DNA of 64,000 nt from positions 3,544-67,543 of the forward strand of contig JACQDT010000001.1 in assembly GCA_016200965.1 (NCBI GenBank). The letters are read 5' to 3'. The DNA comes from Candidatus Azambacteria bacterium. GTDB taxonomy: Bacteria; Patescibacteriota; Minisyncoccia; GWC2-36-17; WO2-46-25. Every line of letters begins with the position of its first letter. Positions within the stretch are counted from its first letter, which is position 1. The notes below the pieces were generated by a model. It searched no databases. It was given only the letters and a program-made list of their open reading frames with translations, and was not told where the DNA came from. This document shows, piece after piece, positions 17,407 to 63,422 of the stretch. The translations under genes and the position numbers were made by a program.

Positions 17407-19026
17407 CTACATCCCCTGGACTGTCACGGTGATTCTCTTGGGGTTATCGGGCGCAAGCGAGATCCAAAAAGGCCAAAAAGTGACTTCCGCGCTTTCTACC
17501 GCCTCATTTTCACGCAATATTCGCTTTATTTCGTCTTCCCCTTTGCCCGCAAGCTGCGCCTGTATTTGTTCTTGCTTGACCGCGCCCGCCGCAAGTTCAT
17601 TGACCTTCACCGTGAAACTCAACGCGGTTTTTCCCGAATTCATCGTTTCATCCGCATACGAAACGACTCTGGTGCCCGGCACCGTTTTTTGCGTATCAAG
17701 CAATCTGCGGACTAAGTGATCCTCCGCCAGCGCGGCGACGTCGCTCTCCGAAAACGCGAACACTTCATATGCCGCCTTCAGGCGCGCTTTGAATTTTCCG
17801 CCCGCGTCGGGAGTGTCGGCGGAAAAATCAGGCGTTCCCTGCGTGCGCGCCCCTGCAAGCACCACGAGTCCTTTGCCGATGTTCGCATTGATATATTCCT
17901 GCGTCTGGGCGGCAAGCTTTTCCGAAAGCGCCGCTTTTGCTTTTTCCAAATCATCCGCCGTCGCCGCGAAACTTCCTCCCGTTCCCCCGCCCGTCATCGG
18001 CTTTGACGATTTCGCGCGAAATCCGGTGAACTTCGGCGTACCTGCAAATCCCGGAATGGTAAAATCGGACGGGCCGATGTTGTGCGCCGCGCCCGCCTGA
18101 TCCGCGATTATTGCCGCCGTGACCATGCCCGGGGAAACAACTTTACCGTCTTTGATCGTCGCGCCCGGTACGACGACGCCGTTTTTCAGACGAAATACGT
18201 TACCGTCTTTCGCCGTAAAGCGCGTGCTTTTCACCAGCGTCTGGGAGTTGCTTGAAAACTCGTTGTATACGGTCAGCTCACCCTCCGCTTTTGTCTCTTG
18301 ATTGTTTTTGCTCGATGCGGTGAATTCGCCCTCCGCCGTTTTTTCCGTTTGTATGCTTTGTCCGGGGATGCGCGCCTTGCCGACATCAATAGCCGAAAGC
18401 TTGCTGTCGGCAACGGCTTGAAAATCAAACCGCACGGTCTCTTTTTTGGGCACGATGACAACCGACAAACGCGGAGAAAGCGCATAAAAACCGGCGCCTG
18501 CCGCCACCCCGGCGGCGATGAAGGAAAGGGTGATGAATTTCCAACTGAATGCAATGCCGCTGTGCGGCTCAATCTCCTCGCCGCGCAGCATGTTCCGTTC
18601 CGTGAGCGTGACACGCGACGCTTCAGGAGCAATGGTTTTCCGGAATACCGTAGGCGCATGAGCGTCGCGTCGCATCACCCGCACATTGATCTCCTCCGGC
18701 TCGTCCTCCGCCGGCGCATCTTCTATAACCGACACCGGCGCGGCGGCGTGCTCTTCTTCGGCTTCCAGTTCCTCAACGCTTATCTCAAGTGAATCCATGC
18801 TTGCGTTTTTTGCGGCATCAAGCACGTTCCGGTCAAGAGATGCAATGACGATATTCTTCCCAAGCGCGACCGCTTCGCGGCGCAAAAGCTTGATATTGAC
18901 CGCGTCGATAAAAAGCGCGGGATTGCGGTCGGCGGCAATGTAAATTGTATTCTCCTCCGTATTTTCCATCCTGTCGATCAAATACGCGATACTCTCGTCG
19001 GGATGGATGTATAAAATTTTTCTCAT
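17407..19026 (-). CDS. hypothetical membrane-anchored protein (lineage-specific)
   Basis: Long ORF with an internal TM segment and an Ala/Gly-rich extracytoplasmic region. Start placed at the MRKILYIHPDE Met to minimise overlap. Confidence 0.4.
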   Translation of the reverse strand: MRKILYIHPDESIAYLIDRMENTEENTIYIAADRNPALFIDAVNIKLLRREAVALGKNIVIASLDRNVLDAAKNASMDSLEISVEELEAEEEHAAAPVSVIEDAPAEDEPEEINVRVMRRDAHAPTVFRKTIAPEASRVTLTERNMLRGEEIEPHSGIAFSWKFITLSFIAAGVAAGAGFYALSPRLSVVIVPKKETVRFDFQAVADSKLSAIDVGKARIPGQSIQTEKTAEGEFTASSKNNQETKAEGELTVYNEFSSNSQTLVKSTRFTAKDGNVFRLKNGVVVPGATIKDGKVVSPGMVTAAIIADQAGAAHNIGPSDFTIPGFAGTPKFTGFRAKSSKPMTGGGTGGSFAATADDLEKAKAALSEKLAAQTQEYINANIGKGLVVLAGARTQGTPDFSADTPDAGGKFKARLKAAYEVFAFSESDVAALAEDHLVRRLLDTQKTVPGTRVVSYADETMNSGKTALSFTVKVNELAAGAVKQEQIQAQLAGKGEDEIKRILRENEAVESAEVTFWPFWISLAPDNPKRITVTVQGM

Positions 19027-20171
19027 GAAGAAAGGTATTCCAATATGCAATCGTCAAAAACCGTTTCGCGGCGTTCTCTTTTATCATCTGCTACAATGCG
19101 TACGCGTACATTGCCGTCATACGACGACTGCTCCGCTCTCTGCGTTCGCGGGTTGCGTTCAAGGGGCAGTCCGGCAAGCCATGTTTCGTCGCGAAGCGCG
19201 TCGTATGCCTCCGGAGCATATTCCGACGCCACTACCCACACGTTGCCCGGCAATAAATTCGTTTTGTCTATCTGTGAAATCGCCGTAACCACTCCTTGCG
19301 CTATGTTGCGCGCCGCCGCAACGATCGTTTCTTTTATTTTTTCCGCTATCCAGGCATTAAGCGCGCCGCCTCGAAACGCATCAAGCATGCTCCGCGCTTC
19401 TTCTTTACCCACTGCGTGCGCCCGTGCCAGTTCTTCAATAAGTATACCATAACCGGCGCGAACAACGCCAATCCCCGCAATTTTTTTTGCGCGCACAACA
19501 ATAATATCGGTTTCATTTTCAAAAATTGCGGCCAATATCGCGCTGTCATTTCCCGTGAAAACCGTTTTCCATTCCGCTAAAGCACAGCGCACGTCCGTCA
19601 TTCCCGCGCATCGCATGCCTAAAGCGGAAGCGAATTCATCAAAAGCGCGTACCAGCGACTTTCCACACGCGATGCTCACTATATCCGCGGTTACTTCTTT
19701 TCCATTTAAACCAACCGCGTCGGGAACCGCAAAACCGTCTACCCAAAAACGCTGGGGGATATTGCGGAATTCGGACGCGGACGCTTCGTTTTCCTTTCCG
19801 TACCATTTTGAAGTGACCGCCTCCACTTCTTCTTTGGTTATTTTCTTTTCCTTATCCTGGCGTATTCCCTTCGCCTGCGCGAATGAAAACATCCCCGTGC
19901 CCCCCGAAAGCGCGACGATAAAATCTTTCGCCCCACTTTTTGATTCCTTGGAAAGCGCCTGCAGGGCCTTTTCGCAATTGAGTATTATTTTTTCTGCGGC
20001 AAAATCCCCTTCGGACACCTCGCTCTCCTGTTTTTCGCTCCCGCGCTCCACTACCACCACCCGGTCGCCTTCCTTTTTCACCACCATGGCGACAATGTTG
20101 TCCGTATACACGACAAACACCACCGCCCGTGAGTAGTCCTTAAAAAAATCTCCTTTCACAAGAAATGACAT
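19023..20171 (-). CDS. hypothetical protein, possibly actin-like ATPase fold (FtsA/PilM-like); carries one 42-bp repeat insertion
   Basis: N-terminal VVFVVYTDNIVAMVV and IVALSGGTG segments resemble ASKHA-fold proteins. A 14-aa NPRTQRAEQSSYDG insert sits near the C-terminus. Confidence 0.35.
   Translation of the reverse strand: MSFLVKGDFFKDYSRAVVFVVYTDNIVAMVVKKEGDRVVVVERGSEKQESEVSEGDFAAEKIILNCEKALQALSKESKSGAKDFIVALSGGTGMFSFAQAKGIRQDKEKKITKEEVEAVTSKWYGKENEASASEFRNIPQRFWVDGFAVPDAVGLNGKEVTADIVSIACGKSLVRAFDEFASALGMRCAGMTDVRCALAEWKTVFTGNDSAILAAIFENETDIIVVRAKKIAGIGVVRAGYGILIEELARAHAVGKEEARSMLDAFRGGALNAWIAEKIKETIVAAARNIAQGVVTAISQIDKTNLLPGNVWVVASEYAPEAYDALRDETWLAGLPLERNPRTQRAEQSSYDGNVRVRIVADDKRERRETVFDDCILEYLSS
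19116..19157 (+). repeat. 42-bp intragenic repeat unit, copy 1
   Basis: gtcatacgacgactgctccgctctctgcgttcgcgggttgc, in frame within the 19023..20171 ORF. Confidence 0.9.
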
Positions 20172-20239
20172 GATATCAGTATATCACGAGGAATAAAAAA
20201 GACGCCATAGAAAACCATAATGGTGCATAAAAACAATAA

Positions 20240-20275
20240 TTTGTCATTTTACCCCGATCGGGGTAAAATGACAAA
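20240..20275. repeat. 36-bp perfect palindrome tttgtcattttaccccgatcggggtaaaatgacaaa
   Basis: Exact self-complementary sequence in an intergenic region. Could be a terminator or an operator. Confidence 0.6.
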
Positions 20276-20332
20276 ATTGTAATACACGAAAAAAAACGAA
20301 AAATAACCAAAAAGAAATAACCGGAAAAATGA

Positions 20333-20363
20333 AAAGCCGGTTACTCGTTCGAGCAACCGGCTT
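20333..20363 (-). terminator. rho-independent terminator downstream of the 20396..21793 gene
   Basis: On the minus strand, the stem aagccggttgctcgaacgagtaaccggctt is followed by a T-rich run. Confidence 0.5.
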
Positions 20364-20395
20364 TCACCATTCAATTCAGCGGTTTGACCGCCACA

Positions 20396-21793
20396 TCACT
20401 TTTTAGGAGGAGCGGGAACCGCCTCCGGCGGTTTGTTGATGTGCAACGTAAAGTGCGGAAAAACAGAACGCGCTTCGGCGTCAAGAAAAAAACGGAGAGC
20501 GTCTTCAAGCGCAACGCGCTGTTTTGCCACCAGATCCGCATCAAAAAGCAGATCGGCGGTGCTGTGCTTGACGTTCAGCTTGCCGTTAAGCTGGCCAAAA
20601 CGCTCGTTCAGCTTCGGGCCCAGCGCGGCATCAAGGGCTTTATCAATCCCCCGATCAAGCTGTTCTTTATCTTTCCACGCCTGCCACACGGAGATGAAAT
20701 CCTCCTTTTTTTTCATCATCCGATAATCCACCGTGACGGGCAGTGCAATTCTCCGCGCTCCGTCAATGAACGTGAACGTTTTTGGAAAAGAACCGTCAAC
20801 AGGCACGCCCGGCACGACCCGATACCGGAAGTGATTGATAGTGTTTTTCTCCCAGGTGAGAAAGTGGTCGCCTATTTTAAGCGGCAAGCGGGCCACAAAC
20901 TCCCCCGACTTCCGGTCAACAAGCACCGCATGGTCTTCTACGGGATTCTTTTCGTAGACACTTAAAGGAATCCAGAACGAAAGCGAAGCATACAGCACCA
21001 TCACTGCAATCACGCAAGCGCTTGTCCGCCAATAAAGGTTCCTCCTGCTATTTGCCCGCAAGCCAAACATGAGGAAGCACGCGACCACCACAGAAGCAAG
21101 AGTGGAAAGAAACAAACCGATCGCGCCCGAGATTCGCCAGTTGAAAATCCAATACCAGACGATCTCGGCAAGGCATCCGATGAGCAGAGTGAAATCGCGC
21201 GCCGTTTCAATCCTGTTTTGGTTTCTTTGTATCCACGGAGCAAGAAACCGAAGCATCCTTGATCCTTGACGCCAGAACGCGCCGACTGCCCGGCCTATTG
21301 CTCCCCCTATCTGGCTCACCGCTCTCCGCATTGATTTTTGCGCTTCCTTTGCCCAGCTTGTCGCTTCGTTGAACTCTCGTTCAACCTGCACAATACTGCA
21401 TGCGTTTCCCGAAAGCAGAAGCGACATCACCGGCCACAGCTTTGTTTGAAGCGGTTTCTGGGCATAGCCGTCAATGCGAAAGCTCTCTTTACAATACTCG
21501 GACTCGCCGGAAGCCAAATGATAGAGCGTCACGCCGAGCCGCCGGAACGATTCCCGCAAATCGGGGACCCCGTTTTTTGCCTCAAAGCGGATCTTCCTTC
21601 CGCGATGAATCTCAATGCGGTTCGGCGGAAACGATACGTATTCCCCCTTCTGGGCACCTTTGGCGCATTCATTCAGAAGAACCTTTGCTACGGCAATCAG
21701 CTCTTTCTCGTCCATCACGAGTTGTTTCCTCTGTTCGGCCATTGTGTAACCCCCTTTCCTTTGAGTGTAGTGCATGAAATTCTCAACGTGCAT
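20396..21793 (-). CDS. membrane protein with C-terminal SPFH/band-7-like region (hypothetical)
   Basis: Central TM segments. C-terminal VTVDYRMMKKKEDFISVW region with a charged coiled-coil tail, reminiscent of SPFH proteins. Confidence 0.35.
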   Translation of the reverse strand: MHVENFMHYTQRKGGYTMAEQRKQLVMDEKELIAVAKVLLNECAKGAQKGEYVSFPPNRIEIHRGRKIRFEAKNGVPDLRESFRRLGVTLYHLASGESEYCKESFRIDGYAQKPLQTKLWPVMSLLLSGNACSIVQVEREFNEATSWAKEAQKSMRRAVSQIGGAIGRAVGAFWRQGSRMLRFLAPWIQRNQNRIETARDFTLLIGCLAEIVWYWIFNWRISGAIGLFLSTLASVVVACFLMFGLRANSRRNLYWRTSACVIAVMVLYASLSFWIPLSVYEKNPVEDHAVLVDRKSGEFVARLPLKIGDHFLTWEKNTINHFRYRVVPGVPVDGSFPKTFTFIDGARRIALPVTVDYRMMKKKEDFISVWQAWKDKEQLDRGIDKALDAALGPKLNERFGQLNGKLNVKHSTADLLFDADLVAKQRVALEDALRFFLDAEARSVFPHFTLHINKPPEAVPAPPKK

Positions 21794-21805
21794 TCCTTCT
21801 CGCTC

Positions 21806-21915
21806 CGTCTGTCCCTTCCGAGATCGGATCTCGGAAAACGACAGGCGGACTGAAAAGGAGACAGCGGAGCGAGGGGCGTTTAGCCGGACGCTCCGCTGTC
21901 CCAGATGTTAGGCGT
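21806..21915 (-). terminator. nested hairpins downstream of the AAA+ operon (probable terminator)
   Basis: Inverted repeats ctcgctccgtctgtc / gacagcggagcgag and the palindrome ccgagatcggatctcgg, followed on the minus strand by a T-rich tract. Confidence 0.4.
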
Positions 21916-21922
21916 GTGTTAC

Positions 21923-24346
21923 TTACGCCTCGTGCTTTGGTGTTTTATGCGCAAACTGCAAGTCGGGAAAGACCGCCGGCTGATTGGGAACGCTCCCCCT
22001 CAACCGCGTCTCTGCGGCAGAAAGAATATCCCGCCAGTGCGGGGGCCGCAATCGCTTTGAGCTCCCCTTGATGGCAAGAATGATCTGCCGGTCAATCTCC
22101 GCATGGCTGTTTCCTTCCCAATCGTCAAGCGCCTGCAAAAGGTGGGCTTTTTTGACTTGTTCGGCGCCTTCCCGGCCGGCGTATTTATCGGCCTCAAGCA
22201 CCATCCACTCAATGTCCGCGCCCGTACAGTATACTTTCTCCGCCGCACTTTTGGCATACGGCGAGAAGTCGGCAATGTCGGTCGGTATCTCGTACCGCTT
22301 AAACATCACCTCAAAGATGCTCCGCAACTCTTCTTCCGAAGGGAGCACGAACGGAATGTTGTCGTCCGTACGGCCTTTGCGTTTGTAGGCGGCGTCAATG
22401 AGGTCGTCGCGGTTTGATATCCGCACCCAGACGACTTTCCCTCTGCGCTTGGGGTCCGAGCAGAATTGAAATTTCATCTGCCGCAGACGGTTGGAAACCC
22501 CGGAATCGCCGTTGGGTACGTCGCGCGGACTTTCGGACTGATCCGCTTCATCCTCCACGACAATCACCGGCGCAAGATCGTCCAGCGCGGCAAGCATTGC
22601 CGCCATGGTCCGTTCCGACTCCCCCACCCACATGGTGCGCGGGTTTGCAATCTCCACGAAATTGAACCCGCACTCATAGGCCCAACACTCAAAGAGAAAG
22701 GTCTTGCCTGTCCCCGGAGGCCCCGCGGCAAGCATTCCCATCGGCACGCGGCGCGTCATTCCTTTGAGCAGGTAATCGCGTACTTCGTGTAAATACGCTT
22801 TCACATTCTCTTTGCCGCCGAAATACCGAAAGCCGAACTGGGGCGTCTTTACCTTGATCCGCTCGCCGAATTCCGCTTCAAGCGCTTCCTGTTTGCGTCT
22901 TTTGACAAGCGAGAGGTCAAGCGTGGTGTTGCGCGCTTTTGCAAGCGCGTACACCCCGTCAATCTGGCGCAACGATAAGCCGCCGGTGATTCTCCCAAGC
23001 GACTCTGCGTCAAGCCCCTGATCAAGCGATACCCCGTTGCCCTCAATCAGCGTGTGCCAGCGCAGGGTGCGCTCCGTATCTTTTGGTTTGGAAATCCGAA
23101 TGGCAACGGCGCCCGACTGTGCCGAGCGTATGCTTTCGGCCACATCGGCAAGGTGAGGAGTCACTAAGATCACAGTGTTCCCGGCCTCCTTGATTCTCTT
23201 ATCCCGCGCCCATCGCTCAAGCGTTTCAATCTGCGCGCGCTCTCCCGCGGCAAGTCCGCTTGAGAACGCAGGCGCGATGTTGTGCGCAAAATCAATCACC
23301 AGCGCTTTTTTCAAACTGCCGTCCTTTCCGGTATCATCGGTCAATACCTGTTCCAGTAAAGGGAGCATCTTGTCCGGCGTTTTGCCGCCGGTAAGCTGGT
23401 CAAGCGGCGCAGTCATCATTGACTGTTGAAATCCTTGCGCCGCCTTCTGGACCGCGCTTGTTTGTGCTGTTTGAGAAGCGGCGGCAGGAACTCCGGCGCC
23501 GCAATACTGTTGGCGGAACTGTTTTTCCTTTTCCGCGTCGGCAAACTGCACGCCCGCGGAGATGGAATAAAACAACACCATTCTCTGCTCAAACACCTCG
23601 GCGAGGTATTGATACAAAGAAAGATGCGTTCCTTTCTGGCTCCTCTGGAGGTCGTACACGTTCCCCCACAGAATGAACAGATGGGCAACGCCTGCCTGAT
23701 ATCGCAGGACAAGCTCTTTGAGCCACTCCGGCATCTCGTCGTTCACGGCTATCACCTCCTCCTTTGTTGAAGCGATTGGTTTTTCCGGCTCTTGCGAGAT
23801 CGCGGACGCCTCTGGGTTAACCCCTGCGGTCTGAACCCCTCCTATGAGCTCAAGATCATCCATAGCGCACCACCATCGGGCATTGGACTCGGTCTTACAG
23901 CTTTGCGGATACCATGGTTTTGCCCACGTATTTGCACCACTGGTACCGTCACCGTCGTGACCATCTCTGAAATCCTCAAACTCCGCAAGAAAAATCTGCG
24001 AAGTTAGAGTGTCTGATGGATTTAACACCACAACCGTTCCTGTCTTGCCTTTTGGTTCGCTCGCGACAGCTCTCACTCGGTCGCCCACTTTGAACTTCAA
24101 GCCGGGCCGCTCAAGAAGAATGAGGTTGTCGGAGTTGGTAGCGTGCAGAGAATTTGATTTTCCAATCACCGTTCCCCACAGTTTGTTGTTTTCAAACCCC
24201 TCCACGCGCACCCGTTCTGCATGCCATCGACTAGAAGAGGGATTCTGTTGATCATCAGTAATCACATCACCCGATCTGAACCCCCACAGCTCGCCTTCTG
24301 TTTCAACTACATATTCACCGTCAGTGGCAACAATTTTTTTCTTCAT
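21923..24346 (-). CDS. large AAA+ ATPase: unknown N-terminal domains plus a classic-clade AAA module
   Basis: Walker A GPPGTGKT, Walker B IVVEDEAD, and sensor SNRDDLIDAAYKRKGRTD. A degenerate AAA-like segment lies upstream. AGGAGG SD; start overlaps the preceding ORF (ATGA). Confidence 0.7.
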   Translation of the reverse strand: MKKKIVATDGEYVVETEGELWGFRSGDVITDDQQNPSSSRWHAERVRVEGFENNKLWGTVIGKSNSLHATNSDNLILLERPGLKFKVGDRVRAVASEPKGKTGTVVVLNPSDTLTSQIFLAEFEDFRDGHDGDGTSGANTWAKPWYPQSCKTESNARWWCAMDDLELIGGVQTAGVNPEASAISQEPEKPIASTKEEVIAVNDEMPEWLKELVLRYQAGVAHLFILWGNVYDLQRSQKGTHLSLYQYLAEVFEQRMVLFYSISAGVQFADAEKEKQFRQQYCGAGVPAAASQTAQTSAVQKAAQGFQQSMMTAPLDQLTGGKTPDKMLPLLEQVLTDDTGKDGSLKKALVIDFAHNIAPAFSSGLAAGERAQIETLERWARDKRIKEAGNTVILVTPHLADVAESIRSAQSGAVAIRISKPKDTERTLRWHTLIEGNGVSLDQGLDAESLGRITGGLSLRQIDGVYALAKARNTTLDLSLVKRRKQEALEAEFGERIKVKTPQFGFRYFGGKENVKAYLHEVRDYLLKGMTRRVPMGMLAAGPPGTGKTFLFECWAYECGFNFVEIANPRTMWVGESERTMAAMLAALDDLAPVIVVEDEADQSESPRDVPNGDSGVSNRLRQMKFQFCSDPKRRGKVVWVRISNRDDLIDAAYKRKGRTDDNIPFVLPSEEELRSIFEVMFKRYEIPTDIADFSPYAKSAAEKVYCTGADIEWMVLEADKYAGREGAEQVKKAHLLQALDDWEGNSHAEIDRQIILAIKGSSKRLRPPHWRDILSAAETRLRGSVPNQPAVFPDLQFAHKTPKHEA

Positions 24347-24645
24347 TTATCTTCCTCCTTTGCTGTGTGCTGGCGGTGGGCAATGGGAGAGCAATGGTAG
24401 CACTCATGTTCCTGCTTCATCTCTTTATCCCATCCGCCTTCTCCCTTTTTCACCGCGCCTGCGCCAAGCGCTCCTAAAAGAAGCGCCATGATCATGTGGT
24501 CGTCGCTTTTTTCATCCGGCGAGTCGTTGACTACGGTCACCTCACCGCCAAACACCACAAGACCCACATATTTAGGCGCGGTGCTTTTCTCTTTCCGCAT
24601 GGCTTTGAACTTCCGCTTCGCTTTTGCTATCGCTCTGCTGGACAT
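24343..24645 (-). CDS. hypothetical small protein (operon member, translationally coupled to the AAA+ gene)
   Basis: Its stop overlaps the AAA+ start. A GGGGGTGAG SD-like sequence precedes the start. Overlaps the preceding 68-aa ORF by 74 nt, so the true start is uncertain. Confidence 0.3.
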   Translation of the reverse strand: MSSRAIAKAKRKFKAMRKEKSTAPKYVGLVVFGGEVTVVNDSPDEKSDDHMIMALLLGALGAGAVKKGEGGWDKEMKQEHECYHCSPIAHRQHTAKEEDK

Positions 24646-24778
24646 CGGTTCTCACCCCCATTTTCGCCAAAAGCAACCGGATGACTTCTTCTTCATCCGA
24701 ACAGGTATCCCCCGGAAAGCCCTCAAAAAAGTCAACCGAGAGCTTTCCCTTCTCAACGCTCACCACTATTTTTCTCAT
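24572..24778 (-). CDS. small protein with DUF2997-like pattern (M-KIVV-V-G-V-FEGF-G-C)
   Basis: The pattern MRKIVVSVEKGKLSVDFFEGFPGDTCSDEEEVIRLLLAKMG resembles that family from memory. Start overlaps the stop of the upstream ORF. Confidence 0.3.
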   Translation of the reverse strand: MRKIVVSVEKGKLSVDFFEGFPGDTCSDEEEVIRLLLAKMGVRTDVQQSDSKSEAEVQSHAEREKHRA

Positions 24779-25302
24779 TGGGCCACCCCCACTATGTTCA
24801 CCACCTGCTTTTTTTCGCCGGTTTCCGGATCGTCAACCACGCTCGTATGCGTGTCTACTTTGTAGCCGATGATGGAAAGAATCGTTTTTGCGGTCTCCTG
24901 CAGGAATACATCCTGAAACAGCCCTTGCAGACGCTTGATCTCCGCTTGCCACCCCGAACGATACTCGTCGGCGATGAATTTCACCGTGCCCTTTGCATCA
25001 ACCGCAATACCCATGCCGTTTGGAAGCGCATCGGTTTTTATCGCGCCGATGATGTCCAAGCCCTCATGGCTTTTGTACTGGGTCTTGCCGTAATAGTCGG
25101 TGATGGTCTTGTCCATCCGTATCCCGCCATCGGCTTTGAGCTTCTCAATCGCGTTTTGGACGCACTCCTTGATGATGGGAACAGTGTCCATGTCTTTGAT
25201 CCACTTGGCAAGCGCGGGATTGCGTCCGGCCAGTTTTTCGAGCATATCACTCAAGATATGCGGCACCACCAGTTGAGTCGTCAATACCACTACTTTGCAC
25301 AT
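24775..25302 (-). CDS. hypothetical protein, first gene of the AAA+ operon (DUF1257-like N-terminus?)
   Basis: Perfect AGGAGG SD 5 nt upstream of the MCKVVVLTTQ start. Confidence 0.4.
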   Translation of the reverse strand: MCKVVVLTTQLVVPHILSDMLEKLAGRNPALAKWIKDMDTVPIIKECVQNAIEKLKADGGIRMDKTITDYYGKTQYKSHEGLDIIGAIKTDALPNGMGIAVDAKGTVKFIADEYRSGWQAEIKRLQGLFQDVFLQETAKTILSIIGYKVDTHTSVVDDPETGEKKQVVNIVGVAQ

Positions 25303-25477
25303 GAGTGCCTCCTTCTGTGTGTGTTGCGTTGGTTTTTGGCTTAGATGAGCCCTTTTTTTCTGGTCATAAAACACCAATTTTCAAGGAACTATCCCCAATT
25401 TTTCTCCTTTTTCTATTCGTTCACAGCGTCTCAATCCTTGTGAGAATATATATCACATTGGCCATTATCTGTCAACC

Positions 25478-25586
25478 CCGTTAGAAGCTTTAAAATTGTT
25501 CATTGAATAACTTGAGAGTAAGCCGTTAAGGCGGCTTCGCCTTACATTGAATCTTAAAAATTGCTTTTCTATGAGCTTCTAACTGG
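25478..25586. repeat. imperfect long inverted repeat with central hairpin aaggcggcttcgcctt, spanning the alaS 3' end
   Basis: ttagaagct at 25481-25489 pairs with agcttctaa at 25575-25583. Internal ttaaaattg / caatttttaa pairing and a central GC hairpin. Confidence 0.4.
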
Positions 25587-27458
25587 GTCAACCGTCGCGC
25601 GGATGCGGCGGACGCCTGCGGAAGACGCTTCTTCTTTAAGAATCTTAAATGTACCGACTTCTTTTGTGTTGGAAACATGCGGGCCGCCGCAGAGTTCTTT
25701 TGAAAAATCTCCCGCGGAGTACACTTTTACCGTTTTCCCGTATTTTTCCTTTTGGAACATAAGCGCGCCGACTTTTTCGGCTTCATCTATCGGCATTTCT
25801 CTGCACACCATCGGCAGTTCTTTTTGTATCTGTTCATTTACGATATCTTCCGTTTTTTTCTTCTCTTCGTCCGTCATTTTCTGCGGATGAGAGAAGTCAA
25901 ACCGCAAACGCTCCGCCGTGATGTCGGACCCTTTCTGATGCACGTGGTCACCCAGCACCTTGCGCAGCGCCGCCTGCAGAAGATGCGTCGCCGTATGCAG
26001 GCGCGTGACCTTCTTTAATTCTTCCTCATCGGCCGCCTTCAACTCTCCCGTCTGCAACATCAACCCATGCCTGCCGAACTTTTTTTCTGAACCTACGCGA
26101 GAAATCTCTTGATGTTTTTTGTATTCTTCCTGAAATTCCTGTTCATTTATGATATTTCCTTTTTCTTTTGCGAGATCCTGAAGAATCTCAAAAGGAAAAC
26201 CTTGACTTTGGTATAAATAAAATGCTTCTTTCCCGGAGATCTCCCATCGTCCCTCAAACTCCTTAAGACCTTTTTCTAAAACAACATTAAAACTATCAAA
26301 TTCTGATTTAAGTTCTGCTATAATAATTGATTGGTGTCTATTAAGCTCTGAATAATAGTTGCCGTAATAATGAATAAGATTGGAAACAAAATTATTAAGT
26401 TGTTTTTGAGAGATGGACAATTTTTTCATGTGTACCCCCAACCTTCTTATTAAACGCCGCAATATATAACCTGCGTCTTTATTAGAGGGCTTTATTCCTG
26501 CGGCAAGTAAAAACACGGATGCCCTGAGATGGTCGGCAATAATACGTCCGCTCCGCGTAGTTAACACTACTGAATCGGACTCAAATACAGGTTCTGGAGT
26601 TAATTGAGAAAAGGATCTCAATACAGAGGATTCAAGAGGCACTCCCGGAAAAGATGTTTTAAACACATCCGTATCAAACACCGTTGCAACGCCTTGCAAG
26701 ACCATCGCGATGCGCTCAAGCCCCATGCCGGTATCTACGTTTTTCTGCGCAAGCGGCGTATACGCATAGCCACCCTTACCATCTGGTTTCTTCTCGTATT
26801 CCATGAACACGTTGTTCCAAATCTCCACAAATCGCCCGCACTCGCAGTTCACATGGCATTGCTTGCCAAATGCCGTATCGTGTTCTTTCCCCGTGTCATA
26901 AAAAATCTCCGTGTCTGGCCCGCACGGTCCCGCTCCGGCAAGCTCCCACCAGTTCTTTTTTTTCGGATAGGTTGCAATGCGTCCGTTCGCCACGCTTGCC
27001 TCCATGCCCGCGCTTTTAAACGCACGCACCCAATGCCCGATGGATTCATCGTCGCGTGGAATATCCATTCCCTTATCCTCAAACACCGTCACATAGAGTT
27101 TTTTAGGATCAATGCCAAACCATTTTTTTGAAGTCAAAAGTTCAAAACTCCACTCAATCGCCTCTTTTTTGAAATAATCCCCGAGCGACCAATTACCGAG
27201 CATTTCAAAAAAAGTGAGGTGACGGTTGTCGCCTACTTCCAAAATATCGTCCGTGCGGAGGCATTTTTGGGAATCGGCAAGCCGCGTGCCTTGCGAGTGC
27301 TTTTTTTCCCCCATCAGATACGGCACGAGCGGCTGCATGCCGGCAGTCACGAACAGCACCGTTTTATCGTCGGGAATAAGCGACGCCGAAGGAATGATCG
27401 CGTGCCCCTTTTCCCTGAAAAAATCCAGAAATTTCTGCCTGACTTCGTTCAATGTCAT
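25569..27458 (-). CDS. alaS: alanine--tRNA ligase, short form lacking the C-terminal C-Ala/DHHA1 domain
   Basis: N-terminal catalytic-domain motifs (FLDFFREKGH, FVTAGMQPL, FEMLGNWSLGDY) and the editing-domain HTATHLL ... GGPHVSNT motif. Start placed at MTLNEVRQKF. Confidence 0.85.
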   Translation of the reverse strand: MTLNEVRQKFLDFFREKGHAIIPSASLIPDDKTVLFVTAGMQPLVPYLMGEKKHSQGTRLADSQKCLRTDDILEVGDNRHLTFFEMLGNWSLGDYFKKEAIEWSFELLTSKKWFGIDPKKLYVTVFEDKGMDIPRDDESIGHWVRAFKSAGMEASVANGRIATYPKKKNWWELAGAGPCGPDTEIFYDTGKEHDTAFGKQCHVNCECGRFVEIWNNVFMEYEKKPDGKGGYAYTPLAQKNVDTGMGLERIAMVLQGVATVFDTDVFKTSFPGVPLESSVLRSFSQLTPEPVFESDSVVLTTRSGRIIADHLRASVFLLAAGIKPSNKDAGYILRRLIRRLGVHMKKLSISQKQLNNFVSNLIHYYGNYYSELNRHQSIIIAELKSEFDSFNVVLEKGLKEFEGRWEISGKEAFYLYQSQGFPFEILQDLAKEKGNIINEQEFQEEYKKHQEISRVGSEKKFGRHGLMLQTGELKAADEEELKKVTRLHTATHLLQAALRKVLGDHVHQKGSDITAERLRFDFSHPQKMTDEEKKKTEDIVNEQIQKELPMVCREMPIDEAEKVGALMFQKEKYGKTVKVYSAGDFSKELCGGPHVSNTKEVGTFKILKEEASSAGVRRIRATVDPVRSS

Positions 27459-27814: not shown

Positions 27815-28969
27815 TCAATGGCTTTCATCATGAACGATTACGCCTCCGCCAAGCACTGCATCGTCGTCATACGACGACTGCTCCGCTCTCTGCGTTCGCG
27901 GGTTGCCGTCATACGACGACTGCTCCGCTCTCTGCGTTCGCGGGTTGCCGTCATAAAACACAATGGACTGGCCGGGGGTCACCGCGCGCTGGGGTTCGTC
28001 AAATATCACGTGAAGCGCGGCGTCAACGAAGCATTTCTGCAACGGCTGGCGATATCGGATGCGCGCTTCACAACGTAATGGAAACTGCGGCGCGGTTCCC
28101 GATATCCAACTTACACCCCGCGCAATCAATTCGGTCTTATACAAATCGCCTTCTTTTATGTTTTCCGCAACATACAGCGTGTTATGCGCGAGATCTTTTT
28201 GGGCGACGTAATACGCCGTGCCTCCGCCGGGAGAGCCGATGCCATGACGCTGGCCAATGGTGTAAAACACCGCTCCCTGATGCTTGCCCACCTGCTTTCC
28301 CGCCGCAGTCAGCACCGGCCCCGGCTGGGCGGCGATTTGGCTTTTTAGAAAATCAAACACCTCCAGTTCACCCACGAAGCATACCCCCTGGCTTTCCTTT
28401 CTGTTGGCGTTTGACAAGCCGAATTCCCGCGCGAGCTCGCGCACATGCGACTTAATAAAACCGCCTATGGGAAAAAGCACATGCGCTAATTTTTTTTGTG
28501 TCAGTGTCCACAAAAAATATGACTGGTCTTTGTTCTTGTCCATGCCGGCAAATAACGAGTAGCCGCCAGCAAGTAGTTGAGTGCGCGCATAGTGCCCCGT
28601 TGCAATAAAATCCGCTCCCATTGAAAGCGCGCGGTCAAGAAAAATACCGAACTTGATTTCTTTATTGCACATCACATCGGGATTGGGCGTGATTCCTTCA
28701 CGGTACGAAGAGACCATGTAGTCCACGACTTTCTTTTTGTATTCCTCCTGGACATCCCATGTATAAAAAGGAATGCCAAGCACGGCGGCCGCCTTGCGCG
28801 CCTCTTCCTGGTCCGCGACCCACGGGCACATCGTCTTGTCCTTGAAGAACCGGCTGTCAGACCAGCCCTTCATGAATACGCCCGTAACGTCATATCCTTC
28901 TTTTTTCAGCAATGCCGCCGCGACGGAACTGTCCACGCCGCCGGACATCGCAACGAATATTTTTTGCAT
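27815..28969 (-). CDS. mnmA: tRNA-specific 2-thiouridylase MnmA, carrying two tandem 14-aa repeat insertions near the C-terminus
   Basis: PP-loop AMSGGVDSSVAA, plus the MnmA core and C-terminal beta-barrel. The sequence IVFYDG-[NPRTQRAEQSSYDG x2]-D-AVLGGGVI shows the insert. Confidence 0.85.
   Translation of the reverse strand: MQKIFVAMSGGVDSSVAAALLKKEGYDVTGVFMKGWSDSRFFKDKTMCPWVADQEEARKAAAVLGIPFYTWDVQEEYKKKVVDYMVSSYREGITPNPDVMCNKEIKFGIFLDRALSMGADFIATGHYARTQLLAGGYSLFAGMDKNKDQSYFLWTLTQKKLAHVLFPIGGFIKSHVRELAREFGLSNANRKESQGVCFVGELEVFDFLKSQIAAQPGPVLTAAGKQVGKHQGAVFYTIGQRHGIGSPGGGTAYYVAQKDLAHNTLYVAENIKEGDLYKTELIARGVSWISGTAPQFPLRCEARIRYRQPLQKCFVDAALHVIFDEPQRAVTPGQSIVFYDGNPRTQRAEQSSYDGNPRTQRAEQSSYDDDAVLGGGVIVHDESH
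27866..27949 (+). repeat. two tandem 42-bp intragenic repeat units, copies 2 and 3
   Basis: Two exact consecutive units, followed by a partial gtcata. In frame in mnmA. Confidence 0.9.
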
Positions 28970-41652: not shown

Positions 41653-43227
41653 TTAAACTGTTCTTTTGATGTAACGCAACCCCACGAAAAAAATACCGAT
41701 GATTCCTAAAATAAAAAGGTACGTGTTCCACGGAAACGCGTGTGCCGCAAGCGCCACGGGCGCCTGTTTTTCGTCTCGCGCTTCTTTGGCGGTGGATGCG
41801 ACCGTTGTCTCGCTTCCTTCGCTTTTTGCCTCCGCCGGCGCCACAACATCTTGAAACTGCGGCGCGGGCGCCACGGTCGGTTTTTTGATTTCTATCGCGG
41901 AAACCGGAGAAGAAGAAATTCCGCCGGCTGGCTCTTGCGCGGAAAGAAACATATTTGTTCCGCCCGGCGTGGGGCTTTGTGTCCATACGAATCGTTCGTC
42001 ATACGACGACTGCTCCGCTCTCTGCGTTCGCGGGTTGCCGTCATCGGCGCGCGCGACCGACCAGCACATCTTTGCATTTTCATATGTAACCTCATGCGCC
42101 GTCTGGCCTGTCGGATATGATAATACAACATGCCCCGACAAAGGAAATGTTATCTTGAGCGTGTCTCCGGAAAACACGAGAAATCCGCCGCCCGCGATGA
42201 ATGTATGTTCCGGAACACGAAACATCGCGGCGGACCCGCCTATTCCTATGCTCCATCCGGATAAATCCGCAAACGAATCGCTTGTATTATACAATTCAAG
42301 CCACTGCCCGCCGCTTTCAGATGAAGGAAGAAATTCGGAAATAACGACGCTCTGCGCGTATATGGTCGCCTCTATTTGATCCTGACTTGAGTGCGAGCCG
42401 TCCGATACCGTCAGCACCGCGACATACTTCCCCGGAAACTGATACCGATGCATGGTCGTTTTTCCTTCGGCAACATTCCCGTCGCCGAAATTCCATGAAA
42501 ACGCGAGTAAACCGGCGCCCGTTGATCGTGAGGCGTCAAATGAAACCGCATCTCCCGCAACAGCGACGATATTGGCGCCCGCATCAGCAACAATGGTATT
42601 TTGGGAAGCGGCGGAAGCACCCGACGGTTGCGCCGTCGTCTGGGACGAAGAAGACGGAGAAACACCTGCCCCGCTGTTTGGCGCGCGAGGCGTGCCATGT
42701 ATCGGATTGCCTTTCACATCCATCCCGTTTTGTGCCGTTCCGTCATTCGTATGCCATCCTTGCGCGTCTTTTTCCATTGACGCGTAATCGGGCGAAGCGG
42801 ACCCCGCGGGCCAACCGGAGGAAAAATCTATATTGTCCACAACGTTTCCCGCGTTATCTTTCAGCACTACATGCTCTCCGGAATTATTCAATCCGCTCCC
42901 CCCAAATGAGCCCGTCTCATCGGCGGGAACATCTGCGATGACGGTGTCATCGGTCCGTTCAATAAGATAATATCCGTTCGCGGATATTTTTTTCGTCAAC
43001 GCAATGACAAGCGTGCTCCCGCCCGCCTCGTACAGTCCCCAACCCGCAAGATCAATTTCGGCGTTCGTCGCATTTTTCAGTTCCACCCATTCATCGGCGC
43101 TGTTGGCTTTTGTCCCCATCCACCCAACTTCGTTTATCACCACATCGCCCGCGCCCGCGGCAAACACATATAAAGGGATGCTCCACACAACAAGCAACGC
43201 CTGAAAAAGAATTCTTGCGATTCGCAT
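41653..43227 (-). CDS. secreted protein with two lamin-tail domains and a PKD domain; carries one 42-bp repeat insertion
   Basis: Lamin-tail-domain signatures VVINEVGWMG ... DEWVELKN ... DLAGWGL and VVISEFLPS ... QWLELYN ... DLSGWSI. PKD-like FSWNFGDGNVAEG. DDG-NPRTQRAEQSSYD-ERF insert. Confidence 0.6.
   Translation of the reverse strand: MRIARILFQALLVVWSIPLYVFAAGAGDVVINEVGWMGTKANSADEWVELKNATNAEIDLAGWGLYEAGGSTLVIALTKKISANGYYLIERTDDTVIADVPADETGSFGGSGLNNSGEHVVLKDNAGNVVDNIDFSSGWPAGSASPDYASMEKDAQGWHTNDGTAQNGMDVKGNPIHGTPRAPNSGAGVSPSSSSQTTAQPSGASAASQNTIVADAGANIVAVAGDAVSFDASRSTGAGLLAFSWNFGDGNVAEGKTTMHRYQFPGKYVAVLTVSDGSHSSQDQIEATIYAQSVVISEFLPSSESGGQWLELYNTSDSFADLSGWSIGIGGSAAMFRVPEHTFIAGGGFLVFSGDTLKITFPLSGHVVLSYPTGQTAHEVTYENAKMCWSVARADDGNPRTQRAEQSSYDERFVWTQSPTPGGTNMFLSAQEPAGGISSSPVSAIEIKKPTVAPAPQFQDVVAPAEAKSEGSETTVASTAKEARDEKQAPVALAAHAFPWNTYLFILGIIGIFFVGLRYIKRTV
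41998..42039 (+). repeat. 42-bp intragenic repeat unit, copy 4
   Basis: Exact unit followed by a partial gtcatc. In frame in the lamin-tail-domain gene. Confidence 0.9.
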
Positions 43228-48387: not shown

Positions 48388-50517
48388 TTATTTGCTTAAT
48401 AATGGCTCAACGCGCTTCAACAGCGTCGCGTTCGTTGCCACAATAATAGAAGAAGCCGACATAAGGAGCGCGGAGATCTCCGGCCGAAGCGACCAGCCCA
48501 GCGAGGTGTAAAATACGCCCGCCGCGACGGGGATCGCGAGCACGTTGTAGATCGTCGCCCAAAAGAGGTTCTGTTTCATTTTGGCGACCGTGGCTTTGCT
48601 TAGGCGGATTGCCGCCACGATGTCGTACGGGTCCGACTTCATCAGCACGATATTTGCCGTTTCTATGGCGACGTCGGTGCCCGCGCCGATGGCGATGCCG
48701 ATGTCGGCCTGGGCAAGCGCGGGCGCGTCATTAATGCCGTCGCCCACCATCGCGGTGAATTTTCCTTCTTGCTGCAATTTCTTCACGTAATCCGCCTTGT
48801 CGTGCGGAAGCACCTGCGCGAAAAATCTAGTGATACCCAGCTCGTCGGCGACCGCGCGCGCCACCTGTTCGTGGTCGCCGGTGATCATCGCGACTTCAGG
48901 TCCAAGCGCTTGTAACGCCGCAATGGTCTTTTTCGCGCTTGGACGCAAGGCATCGCGTATCGCGATTACTCCCACCGCTTTTCCGTCAATCGCGACGATG
49001 CTGAGCGGGTTGCCGTCATACGACGACTGCTCCGCTCTCTGGGTTCGCGGGTTGCCGTCATACGACGACTGCTCCGCTCTCTGGGTTCGCGGGTTGCCCT
49101 CAAGAAGCGCACGATCAATCTCCGCCTGGACGGGCGCGGTGTCAATCCTGTTTTGCGCCATCAGCTTTGTTGTGCCGACGATCACCGTCCTGCCGTCAAC
49201 TTTGGCGCGGATGCCGAGCCCGCCGAGCGCCTCAAATTTTTCCACGCGCCCGAGGGTCTTTATGTTTCTTTTTTTGGCTTCCTTTAAAATCGCGGCGCTG
49301 ACGGGATGATTCGAGCCCAGCGAAGCGGAGGCGGCGTGCGCGAGCACGGCCTCGTCCGAAAACCTTCGCGTGCCGCTCACCCGAGTAATCGCCGGCTTTC
49401 CCTCGGTAAGCGTGCCGGTTTTATCCAGCACGATCGCGGTAAGCCGCGACGTATTTTCAAGCGTTGCGGCATCTTTAATGAGAATATTATGCCTCGCGCC
49501 GATGCCGGTCCCGACCGCGACGGCGGTGGGAGTAGCAAGCCCCAGCGCGTCGGGACACGCGATGACAACGGTAGAAATGGCAAGGGTGAGCGACGCGATC
49601 AGCGTTGCGCCGGCAATGACATACCAGCCCAAAAAGGTCGCGATGCCGGCGCCCACGGCAAGCACGACAAGCCATGCCGCCGCCCGATCGGCGATGCGCT
49701 GGCCGGGCGCTTTTGAGTTCTGCGCCGTTTCCACGAGCTTAATGATCTGCGCGAGCACCGTTTCCGAGCCGACAGCCATCGCCCGGAATTTCACCATACC
49801 TGTCAGATTAACCGACCCGCCGACGACTTTCGCGGCTATGGTTTTCACAACCGGCATGGACTCTCCCGTCACGAGGGATTCATCGATTGAAGATTCTCCT
49901 TCAGTAATCTCGCCGTCCACCGGTACTTTATCGCCCGGTCGGAGCACCACAATATCACCGCGGATGATTTCCGCGCTTGCGATGCCCGTCTCTTTCCCGC
50001 CGCGGATAACATTGGCCTTCGATGGCACGAGGTCAAAAAGCGCGCGCAGGGCGTCGGACGTACCGCGCCGCGACTTCATCTCCATCCAGTGGCCGAATAG
50101 CACGAATGTCACCAGCATCGCCGCCGCTTCATAAAATGCTTCCCCGTTGCCTTTAAAAGCAAGCGCGATACTGCCCGCATATGCGGCCAAAACGCCGGTG
50201 GCGATAAGCACCGCCATATTGAGCGTGCGCGCCTTGAGCGAATAATATGTCCCCGTGATGAAAATGGAACCGGTCCAGAACACGATCGGCGTCGTCAAAA
50301 GAAAAAGAAGCCAGTTTTTCGGAATCGGCGATGGGAGCGAAACGCCAAAAAGCATTTCCCCCATCTGCGAATACAACACGATGGGAACGGTGAGCGCGAA
50401 CGAAATGAAAAATCGCCGGCGCATATCCGTTTCCATTTCCTTTGCCATCTGCGGGTTCGTCATCGCCGCTTCATGATCGCGATGGCTCACTGTATGCATA
50501 TGATGCTCGTGTTCCAT
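48388..50517 (-). CDS. heavy-metal-translocating P1B-type ATPase with His-rich N-terminus; carries two tandem 14-aa repeat insertions
   Basis: DKTGTLT, TGDHE and GDGINDAP motifs. TM metal site reads IACPDALGLATP (CPD rather than CPC). N-terminus MEHEHHMHTVSHRDHE. ALLEG-[NPRTQRAEQSSYDG x2]-NPLSIVAIDG shows the insert. Confidence 0.85.
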   Translation of the reverse strand: MEHEHHMHTVSHRDHEAAMTNPQMAKEMETDMRRRFFISFALTVPIVLYSQMGEMLFGVSLPSPIPKNWLLFLLTTPIVFWTGSIFITGTYYSLKARTLNMAVLIATGVLAAYAGSIALAFKGNGEAFYEAAAMLVTFVLFGHWMEMKSRRGTSDALRALFDLVPSKANVIRGGKETGIASAEIIRGDIVVLRPGDKVPVDGEITEGESSIDESLVTGESMPVVKTIAAKVVGGSVNLTGMVKFRAMAVGSETVLAQIIKLVETAQNSKAPGQRIADRAAAWLVVLAVGAGIATFLGWYVIAGATLIASLTLAISTVVIACPDALGLATPTAVAVGTGIGARHNILIKDAATLENTSRLTAIVLDKTGTLTEGKPAITRVSGTRRFSDEAVLAHAASASLGSNHPVSAAILKEAKKRNIKTLGRVEKFEALGGLGIRAKVDGRTVIVGTTKLMAQNRIDTAPVQAEIDRALLEGNPRTQRAEQSSYDGNPRTQRAEQSSYDGNPLSIVAIDGKAVGVIAIRDALRPSAKKTIAALQALGPEVAMITGDHEQVARAVADELGITRFFAQVLPHDKADYVKKLQQEGKFTAMVGDGINDAPALAQADIGIAIGAGTDVAIETANIVLMKSDPYDIVAAIRLSKATVAKMKQNLFWATIYNVLAIPVAAGVFYTSLGWSLRPEISALLMSASSIIVATNATLLKRVEPLLSK
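49015..49098 (+). repeat. two tandem 42-bp intragenic repeat units, copies 5 and 6 (ctctgGgttcgc variant)
   Basis: Two consecutive units in frame in the P-type ATPase gene. Preceded by gagcgggttgcc, which resembles a partial unit end. Confidence 0.9.
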
Positions 50518-63331: not shown

Positions 63332-63380
63332 CTCCACACAGTACCTTATCTCATCAAAAATGGGAAGTGGTCCGCTTGCC

Positions 63381-63422
63381 GTCATACGACGACTGCTCCG
63401 CTCTCTGCGTTCGCGGGTTGCG
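63381..63422 (+). repeat. 42-bp repeat unit, copy 9, in the 5' leader of the ABC-F gene and abutting the palindromic element
   Basis: An exact unit, preceded by tccgcttgcc. Confidence 0.9.

Follow-up and report, generated by a model that had tools for sequence, protein, structure and literature searches.

A conserved cassette pairing DUF1257- and DUF2997-type proteins with a Cdc48-like AAA+ ATPase and a module-swapping partner suggests an uncharacterised targeting machine in Candidatus Azambacteria and related bacteria

Five genes on the minus strand of a 64-kb stretch of DNA from Candidatus Azambacteria (Patescibacteria/Candidate Phyla Radiation, CPR), here called the window, make up a chromosomal unit, g1 to g5, which suggests an uncharacterised targeting machine built around a AAA+ ATPase. 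The first three genes encode small proteins and the fourth one the ATPase, and this g1-g2-g3-AAA order was found in all eight distinct CPR lineages examined (the window, L001-3/L010, L004/5, L006, L007, L008/9, L097/98 and L099), so the arrangement is not due to chance. An earlier note on this DNA had described a four-gene operon whose co-occurrence in other genomes was left to be checked, and the recurrence of the order in every lineage settles the point in its favour. The same note had set g5 apart as a separate gene, a view that does not hold: g5 is a co-conserved and modular fifth member, since a gene with its type of N-terminal domain (~120 aa) lies directly downstream of the AAA gene in six of the eight lineages (the window, L002, L004, L007, L008 and L099). 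The g1-g2-g3 genes are also carried by a short contig, L091. In the window the unit is flanked by MnmA and AlaRS on one side and by an FtsA-like gene on the other, and in the sister lineages by a ribosomal-protein/SecY/Adk/Map cluster or by FtsA/FtsZ, with some synteny common to the window. No integrase, repeats or compositional break were seen at the syntenic chromosomal positions in CPR, and the cassette appears to be vertically inherited across these lineages. As previously stated in the note, none of the components has an experimentally assigned function in the literature searched, where papers naming DUF1257 or DUF2997, the families of g1 and g2, assign no function to either.

The motor of the unit, g4 (21923..24346, minus strand), is a type-II AAA+ ATPase of 807 aa that, as read from its motifs and its predicted structure, combines a dead D1 with a complete motor of the p97/Cdc48-D2 type. 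The Pfam AAA family (PF00004) matches residues 538-666 (E 6.2e-20, 72.4 bits against a cut-off of 21.2), and among 21 clusters of orthologues all those with a source name are labelled CPR. An NCBI protein assigned to Candidatus Azambacteria is 100% identical to g4, and an exact look-up of the protein returned no contig. The AlphaFold model (mean pLDDT, the predicted local distance difference test, 78.8) shows three parts: an all-beta region at residues 1-170, an alpha/beta region at 200-480 and the AAA module. The all-beta N-terminal module (23837..24346, minus strand) is modelled as small SH3/Tudor-like barrels with a pLDDT of ~90, gives sub-threshold SH3_12 and PHROG matches and, according to the alignment, is restricted to the long orthologues, the ~600-aa forms being without it. 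A 60-aa open reading frame (ORF), SH3-like by eye, lies just upstream of an ATPase relative on the megaplasmid of Paenibacillus polymyxa SC2 (L126, 4207-4389), and recalls these fused barrels. In the second part (residues ~200-480; 22907..23749, minus strand) the sequence reads FILWGNVYD at the place of Walker A and LVIDFAHNIAP at that of Walker B, and it has no match with AAA models; however, Foldseek aligns g4 along ~600 columns onto the D1-D2 tandem of p97/Cdc48/NVL, its best structural matches (template modelling score, TM, up to 0.58), which is why we regard this first half as a degenerate D1. The D2 module (residues ~485-785; 21992..22894, minus strand) keeps all the catalytic motifs followed by a C-terminal helical extension: GPPGTGKT, VVEDEAD (D599-E600), the aromatic pore loop M-W-V-G-E-S-E, N645 as sensor 1 and the arginine fingers R656/R659, which are invariant or near-invariant across 18 orthologues. 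A profile of the g4 family compared with the PDB found VAT, Cdc48 and p97 as the closest proteins, mainly through D2 (6e-55). The motifs of a classic-clade AAA module that had been noticed previously, including the arginines of the second region of homology, are thus present in g4, and the degenerate AAA-like first half suggested before a canonical module finds its counterpart in the AlphaFold model and the structural matches to the D1-D2 of p97/Cdc48. Among the matches in the libraries searched with g4 there was no Ycf46-specific model, and the JGI label of the protein P0019 ('SpoVK/Ycf46/Vps4 family') is a generic COG name.

Direct scans of the three small proteins against Pfam, NCBIfam, PADLOC and PHROGs gave no useful match, and their families emerged from orthologues and profiles. 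The first gene, g1 (24775..25302, minus strand; 175 aa), had been likened to Ycf35/DUF1257. The hidden Markov model (HMM) of DUF1257 (PF06868) does not match g1 or six orthologues even at E ≤ 1, and no Pfam domain was present in any of 36 clusters of close homologues. A profile of 19 g1 sequences, searched against 1.84 billion representative proteins, found 143 matches and reached ~130-aa proteins (E on the order of 1e-10 to 1e-8) such as P0096, P0098 and P0107 (E 5e-10 to 3e-8), which pass the gathering score of DUF1257 (27.0, 29.7 and 24.4 bits, respectively, against 22.2). Moreover, hhalign aligned residues 46-175 with DUF1257 at a probability of 99.8% (E 1.5e-27). We therefore consider g1 to be a divergent DUF1257 protein (Ycf35 superfamily) with its core at residues ~46-175 and an N-terminal extension of ~45 aa; the likeness stands by profile and transitive evidence, although not by a direct Pfam match. 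A sub-threshold Pfam match to the XPC-binding domain (Rad23) on a short helical stretch at residues 14-36 occurred in five of six orthologues (best E 4e-4) and, despite this consistency, we judged it as probably spurious.

The second gene, g2 (24572..24778, minus strand; 68 aa), is assigned to the DUF2997 family through its orthologues, in line with the suggestion of the earlier note. The window protein itself has no match to PF11211, which is matched by two of six close orthologues (42-57% identical; best E 1.7e-6), and the signature F-x-x-F-x-G-x-x-C (F18, F21, G23, C26) is invariant. The protein fits the ~65-aa form of DUF2997, with an N-terminal beta-hairpin and a G-F-x-G-x-x-C motif that also occurs in DUF2997-matching proteins of L092 and L096 and in a Nostoc protein, and the precomputed annotation of L006 carries DUF2997, flagged as weak. 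The adjacency of DUF1257 and DUF2997, usual in cyanobacteria, holds for g1 and g2, which overlap by ATGA, and on Nostoc plasmids. The third gene, g3 (24343..24645, minus strand), encodes a mini-protein of 100 aa, or 85 aa from an alternative start at ATG 24600, in a family whose members combine a basic N-terminus with a beta-hairpin and a helix; eight of ten of them end exactly in [W/P]-C-G-COOH. Its HMM found an orthologue in seven of the eight CPR loci, the one in L008 being found only by reading the spacer, and also matched L091 and L096. The possibility that g3 was a second DUF2997 paralogue found no support (hhalign probability 10%).

The fifth gene, g5 (20396..21742, minus strand), encodes a modular membrane protein of 448 aa. 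The ORF of 465 aa described before, which extends to 21793, is real, although the shorter form from ATG 21742 is likelier: it has a better Shine-Dalgarno (SD) sequence, corresponds to the NCBI call (P0023) and agrees with the N-termini of the orthologues. The conserved N-domain (residues ~10-130; 21353..21715, minus strand), which contains LGVTLYHLASGESEY, is best seen as a pseudodomain resembling the C-lobe of kinases on the basis of its model, where it reaches a pLDDT of ~70-78 against 52.8 for the whole protein (from a two-sequence alignment). Structurally, this domain matches the protein-kinase domain with the N-lobe absent. At the sequence level, the Pkinase HMM matched none of seven family members at E ≤ 5, a profile comparison with the PDB returned no kinase, and the catalytic motifs are missing, with YVSFPPN and IRFEA at the kinase motif positions and no conserved Asp by eye. 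A hydropathy scan and the predicted structure then place hydrophobic helices at residues 183-202 (weak), 203-230 and 240-263, with an Arg-rich loop (region ~183-263; 20954..21196, minus strand), for which the positive-inside reading would give a topology with the N-terminus in and the C-terminus out. The C-terminal domain (residues 264-448; 20399..20953, minus strand) is a beta-then-long-helix region, possibly SPFH/FliL-like. Its top Foldseek matches in the PDB, to the stomatin SPFH domain (E 0.064, TM 0.40) and the periplasmic domain of FliL, range from E 0.06 to 0.4, no match reaching 1e-3, in a part of the model with a pLDDT of ~30-70. Neither Band_7 nor any other Pfam family matched g5 at E ≤ 0.1, and NCBIfam, PADLOC and PHROGs gave nothing relevant. 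The SPFH-like C-terminus claimed earlier is consequently reduced to a weak structural hint. This domain is kept in P0024 and in the g5 of L004, which, like the window protein, have three hydrophobic helices and the Arg-rich loop.

In other lineages the same position is occupied by a different g5 C-terminal module, linked to diversity-generating retroelements (DGRs). The 3' end of the g5 orthologue in L007 and L008 is the variable region (VR) of a DGR, with its template repeat (TR) in a 120-127-nt repeat 560-620 nt downstream, and the mismatches between VR and TR fall at template adenines in 15 of 16 and 15 of 19 cases, respectively. Downstream of the TR come bAvd and then an RVT_1 reverse transcriptase (RT), and Avd and RT also adjoin the cassette in L002. 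No TR partner was found for the 3' end of g5 in L002 and L099, and the 14.5-kb locus of L099 has no DGR or TR. A tblastn search for RT and Avd found nothing in the window, a result that covers 64 kb of this genome. The DGR-type g5 orthologues have no hydrophobic segment in the hydropathy scan, so they are presumably cytoplasmic. In three lineages the AAA gene directly adjoins the DGR targets, and a complete DGR of Avd, TR and RT (apart from the TR not found in L002) stands directly 3' of the cassette in L001-L003 (5148-10344), L007 (5132-11125) and L008/L009. In L001-3, the whole cassette-DGR block comes directly after the ribosomal-protein/SecY/Adk/Map operon, a placement that may bear on the published statement that the components of certain CPR DGRs include ribosomal protein genes (PMC5758913). 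The g5 orthologue of L099 (10398-12104) has three N-terminal repeats of ~65 aa, starting in the DNA at 10404, 10611 and 10803, which precede the kinase-like domain and a CLec-like C-terminus. Their motif (...RV...ENP...WLEP) resembles an insert in the ATPase orthologue P0003, to which BLAST found no similarity; likewise, BLAST of the N-terminal barrels of g4 against these repeats found none.

Relatives of the cassette also occur outside CPR. The series DUF1257, DUF2997, a small ORF and a AAA ATPase, followed by a WGR-domain gene, is annotated on three Nostoc plasmids: pCC7120alpha of Nostoc sp. PCC 7120 (NC_003276, 37622-40199; proteins WP_010999603 to WP_010999606), pNPUN01 of N. punctiforme and a plasmid of Nostoc NIES-3756. 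The small gene at the third position is present in two of the three and is unrelated to g3, and the WGR-domain genes lie at L128 7965-8510, L129 9887-10381 and L130 6469-7029. The NIES-3756 plasmid has a duplicated DUF1257, and an inserted IS701 transposase separates its DUF2997 gene from the small ORF. A system proposed earlier as undescribed was in this way already annotated in its core order. The IMG/VR viral contig L100 carries a bona fide DUF1257 (1.7e-13), a DUF2997-like ORF and a AAA ATPase with the same D1/D2 hallmarks. Similarly, the virus-like contigs L092-95 carry, with the AAA gene first, a DUF1257-like protein, DUF2997 and a mini-protein of 41 aa with a WCG end, by which the L092 protein was assigned to the g3 family by eye. 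Other genes of these contigs code for a KH-domain protein, a LAGLIDADG endonuclease, a AAA_21 ABC-type ATPase and a STIV_B116-like protein, and L095 has in addition a SAVED-domain gene. Full-length relatives of the ATPase itself were found in Desulfobaccales, Methylomirabilota, Acidobacteria, Armatimonadota and megaplasmids of Paenibacillaceae; HMMs built on CPR g1, g2, g3 and the g5 N-domain revealed no partners near the relatives of other phyla, on 26 viral contigs or on the Paenibacillaceae megaplasmids, with the exception of L100. Two distant full-length relatives (30% identity), in an unclassified bacterial metagenome-assembled genome (L020, 4651-5403) and in Armatimonadota (L021, 6144-6959), lie directly downstream of PspA/IM30-like genes, an adjacency that could suggest a link between this branch and membrane stress.

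Within the window, all five ORFs were confirmed on the minus strand, and the genes form a real, translationally coupled operon, as anticipated, in which the large tandem-AAA ATPase is the last partner of the small genes. The sequence has a perfect SD (AGGAGG, 25313-25308) 5 nt before g1, and the SD of g4 (AGGAGG, 24359-24354) is embedded in the end of g3, 7 nt upstream of the g4 start; both had been pointed out in the earlier note. The junctions described there as of ATGA type are so for g1/g2 (24778-24775) and g3/g4 (24346-24343), but not for g2/g3, where the end of g2 at 24572 and the ATG of g3 at 24645 give a 74-nt overlap. The start of g3 is uncertain, because the in-frame ATG at 24600 would reduce this overlap to 29 nt, as in the orthologous loci of L002 and L099. 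A tentative promoter-like site upstream of g1 (25447..25475, minus strand) reads TTGACA (25475-25470), 17 nt and TATATA (25452-25447), and was absent from a consensus scan, which accepts only those -10 hexamers whose sixth letter is T. A strong intrinsic-terminator-like hairpin 3' of g5 (20332..20365, minus strand; 15-bp stem and a T run) closes the unit, and the GC content of the cassette region (0.49-0.56) compares with 0.45-0.59 in the rest of the window.

The spacer between g4 and g5 (21794..21922, minus strand) holds two very stable stem-loops. The first has a perfect 12-bp stem (21860-21871 / 21889-21900) with a U-rich tract after it, and the second includes a perfect palindrome (21816-21836). 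The 132-nt RNA folds at -70.4 kcal/mol with a z-score of -8.1, so that the hairpins noticed previously between the two genes are real and strong. The same layout, a terminator-like stem with a U-tract and then a second stem using that U-tract, recurs in the four of four other lineages with a spacer of at least 130 nt (z -4.7 to -7.5). Double changes were seen at 11 of 26 consensus pairs, in a poor alignment, and no Rfam family matched in 20100-25700. These hairpins probably tune the expression ratio of g5 to the ATPase by partial termination or processing.

Our best reading of the unit, which we put forward tentatively, is a sensor-coupled AAA+ remodelling machine in which g5 would be the receptor for the targets. 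The ATPase g4 would work as a hexameric protein unfoldase or segregase, and g1, g2 and g3 would assist it as cofactors or regulators of its own, much as Ufd1-Npl4 or p47 do for Cdc48, with the conserved cysteines of the small proteins offering a metal or redox switch. The constant pseudokinase-type N-domain of g5 would dock to the ATPase complex, whereas its interchangeable C-terminal module would be in charge of recognition and so choose the targets of the motor. In the sister lineages this module would be a cytoplasmic, DGR-hypermutated domain acting as a programmable binder; in the window, on the other hand, it would consist of the three-helix membrane anchor and an outward-facing, possibly SPFH/FliL-like domain, so that the machine would be membrane-tethered and coupled to a signal or client on the envelope side. 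This kind of AAA-sensor coupling has an independent precedent in the literature, in the AAA-CLec fusions of CPR and in MoxR-vWA-FGS systems.

Several points weigh against this reading. The functional coupling of the five genes is read from gene order alone, and the unit encodes no protease, nuclease or other effector. In L006 and L097 (Falkowbacteria-like) an unrelated small membrane protein replaces g5. The g3 of the window does not end in WCG, having instead a His/Cys-rich tail of ~30 aa (HECYHCSPIAHRQH). The g5 model is poor overall, and its kinase-like and SPFH-like assignments find no counterpart in sequence searches. Moreover, within 5-7 kb of the full-length ATPase relatives in Desulfobaccales, Methylomirabilota, Acidobacteria, Armatimonadota and Paenibacillaceae megaplasmids there are no genes of the DUF1257, DUF2997 or g5 types, so the motor can work without these partners.

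The main competitor, an unlikely explanation in our opinion, is a sensor-NTPase type of system directed against viruses or serving in conflict, where g5 would sense the invader, the AAA+ protein would set a switch or threshold, and the small Cys proteins would be effectors or adaptors leading to growth arrest. The DGR-diversified g5 orthologues, which would be comparable to the 'antigen sensors' of multicellular bacteria, fit such a role, as do the cassette relatives of plasmids, of a viral contig and of a virus-like contig with a SAVED gene, and the AAA module of g4 gives weak PADLOC matches to IetA (8.8e-7) and TRIP13 (1e-4). The analogy extends to the MoxR-vWA-FGS/DGR systems (PMC7159879) and to the STAND, kinase and AAA sensors targeted by DGRs (PMC10907252). 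However, PADLOC-DB 2.0 returned no relevant match for g1, g2, g3 and g5 (for g1, only a spurious sub-threshold SspC match, E 0.0086) and a generic AAA for g4, no effector domain is recognisable, and the surroundings of the cassette are conserved, syntenic housekeeping genes and not those of a variable defence island, with an apparently vertical inheritance across CPR. The defence role raised in the earlier note is unsupported by PADLOC and by the neighbourhood, although a role in conflict may be considered in view of the DGR link and of the relatives in viruses and on plasmids.

That same neighbourhood and vertical conservation would suit a housekeeping role in proteostasis or membrane quality control, like FtsH-HflK/C or Cdc48 with its adaptors, which we consider rather improbable. 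The ATPase would here extract or unfold damaged proteins at the membrane with g5 as an SPFH scaffold, and the small proteins would be stress- or redox-sensing regulators comparable to the Ycf46 operon. The membrane anchor of g5 and its weak SPFH/FliL-like hint agree with it, as do the PspA-like genes beside the distant AAA relatives of L020 and L021, the clustering of DUF2997 and DUF1257 (ycf35) with Fed7 in cyanobacteria (PMC4284462) and the response of the Ycf46 AAA operon to many stresses (PMC7496141). Against it, neither a protease partner nor a protease domain is encoded, no HMM supports SPFH, and a soluble, DGR-hypermutated binder at the g5 position of the sister lineages is hard to reconcile with a generic scaffold.

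A domesticated phage or plasmid module, originally devoted to the replication, assembly or host takeover of the element and only incidentally associated with g5, is very unlikely. The DUF1257-DUF2997-AAA series does lie among many small hypothetical genes on conjugative Nostoc plasmids, and the combination is found on the IMG/VR contig as well as beside the LAGLIDADG and STIV_B116-like genes of virus-like contigs; but the CPR copies occupy syntenic chromosomal sites that show neither an integrase nor repeats nor a compositional break, six of eight lineages conserve the g5 N-domain along with them, and tblastn with the ATPases of the window and L100 found nothing, or generic AAA similarity only, in a collection of 50,697 phage records. 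Finally, a dedicated chaperone or quality-control ATPase for DGR-mutated proteins, unfolding or clearing misfolded g5 variants, seems extremely improbable: the adjacency of the AAA gene to DGR targets in three lineages and the fused AAA-CLec targets reported in CPR (PMC10907252) would favour it, but no DGR was detected near the cassette in the window and in at least four other lineages that retain it, and the g5 of the window and L004 is of a non-CLec type.

If we return to the sensor-coupled remodelling machine, a bolder version can be proposed, although as a speculation that we deem improbable. The cassette of DUF1257, DUF2997, a Cys-tailed mini-protein and a AAA ATPase in CPR, cyanobacterial plasmids and viruses would represent an unrecognised class of programmable protein-remodelling systems, where a g5 receptor presents captured targets to a Cdc48-like unfoldase, recognition is either membrane-sensing or rewritten by DGRs, and the WCG mini-protein is a covalent tag or a redox/metal latch. 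Such a role for the mini-protein would parallel that of Pup and ubiquitin-like modifiers, to which it has no homology. If true, this would be an adaptive 'antibody-plus-segregase' device for prokaryotes with tiny genomes, and would give a first function to Ycf35/DUF1257 and DUF2997, which are conserved in cyanobacteria, Ycf35 also in algal plastid genomes, and which accompany a specific Cdc48-like AAA+ motor in hosts that are very distant from each other. The locus therefore connects two open problems, the role of the abundant DGR targets of CPR and that of these DUFs, and both become testable, since Nostoc sp. PCC 7120, which is genetically tractable, carries the cassette on a plasmid and the small size of all the parts allows their reconstitution and the prediction of complexes.

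Two other features of the window were recorded. Between g5 and the FtsA-like gene there is a perfect palindrome of 18+18 nt (TTTGTCATTTTACCCCGA/TCGGGGTAAAATGACAAA; 20240-20275) with promoter-like hexamers on both strands. In addition, a 40-nt repeat core, AACCCGCGAACGCAGAGAGCGGAGCAGTCGTCGTATGACG, occurs nine times in the window against zero expected, eight times on the minus strand (19115-19154, 27865-27904, 27907-27946, 41997-42036, 49014-49053, 49056-49095, 52412-52451 and 63380-63419) and once on the plus strand (59372-59411). Two of its sites are tandem pairs with a 42-nt period, which, being a multiple of three, lets the repeat be read in frame, and it reads as NPRTQRAEQSSYDG at both sites checked, the C-terminus of an MnmA-like gene and that of the FtsA-like ORF 19023-20171. 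It has the look of a mini-repeat that invades ORFs and recalls the Rickettsia palindromic elements.

Among known systems, the Nostoc cassette is the nearest in layout, with the same gene order and tight or overlapping junctions, and the D2 and C-terminal extension of its ~540-aa AAA protein are 27.6% identical to g4 over 359 aa (E 2.7e-16). Both proteins share the segment G-D-[ST]-G-V-S-x-R, a segment that Ycf46 presumably has too, as GDSG[TV]SxR. Unlike the window g1 and g2, too divergent for direct matches, the Nostoc proteins are canonical Pfam members, the 85-aa third ORF has neither the WCG end nor a match to the g3 HMM, and the cassette is plasmid-borne, with a WGR-domain gene after it in place of a g5-type one. 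The Ycf46 AAA operon of Synechocystis (slr0373-slr0374-slr0376), which responds to many stresses and whose function is unknown, can be likened by its description to the cassette, as a three-gene operon with a AAA protein of a single active module (PMC7496141). In cyanobacteria, DUF1257 (ycf35) and DUF2997 also cluster with the ferredoxin Fed7 (PMC4284462), a cluster that, unlike the cassette, has a ferredoxin and no AAA protein.

With Cdc48, p97 and VAT, g4 shares the tandem ATPase folds, a D2 that is nearest to theirs by sequence and structure, the arginine fingers and an expected dependence on small adaptor proteins. Its pore loop reads TMWVGESE, where that of p97 D2 is TMWFGESE. In contrast to Cdc48, the D1 of g4 lacks Walker A and Walker B, and the Cdc48-type N-domain is absent from the family or has SH3-like barrels in its place. 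The NCBIfam model for CDC48 (TIGR01243) gives 88 bits against a cut-off of 802.65, with only D2 matching, so g4 is not a Cdc48 orthologue, and its partners are DUF1257 and DUF2997 instead of UBX, Ufd1 and Npl4.

The last comparison is with the DGR sensors coupled to NTPases. MoxR-vWA-FGS ternary systems with DGRs are known in other bacteria (PMC7159879), STAND, kinase and AAA sensors are DGR targets (PMC10907252), as are kinase-CLec proteins (PMC5758913, PMC10907252), and fused AAA-CLec targets are reported in CPR (Paul et al. 2017, as cited in PMC10907252). The sister lineages likewise show a DGR-mutated C-terminal binding domain genetically coupled to a AAA+ NTPase, and N-terminal kinase-type domains on DGR targets were already known (PMC5758913, PMC10907252). 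The coupling in CPR to a pseudokinase-like, module-swapping and sometimes DGR-hypermutated partner nonetheless appears undescribed in the literature searched. In the window, where no DGR was found, a membrane or SPFH-like module stands in place of the CLec-type domain. Unlike the AAA-CLec fusions, the ATPase and its target are separate genes in the CPR cassette, the ATPase is a classic-clade, Cdc48-like protein and neither a MoxR nor a STAND one, the kinase-like part is a pseudodomain limited to the C-lobe, and three small DUF proteins are added to the set.

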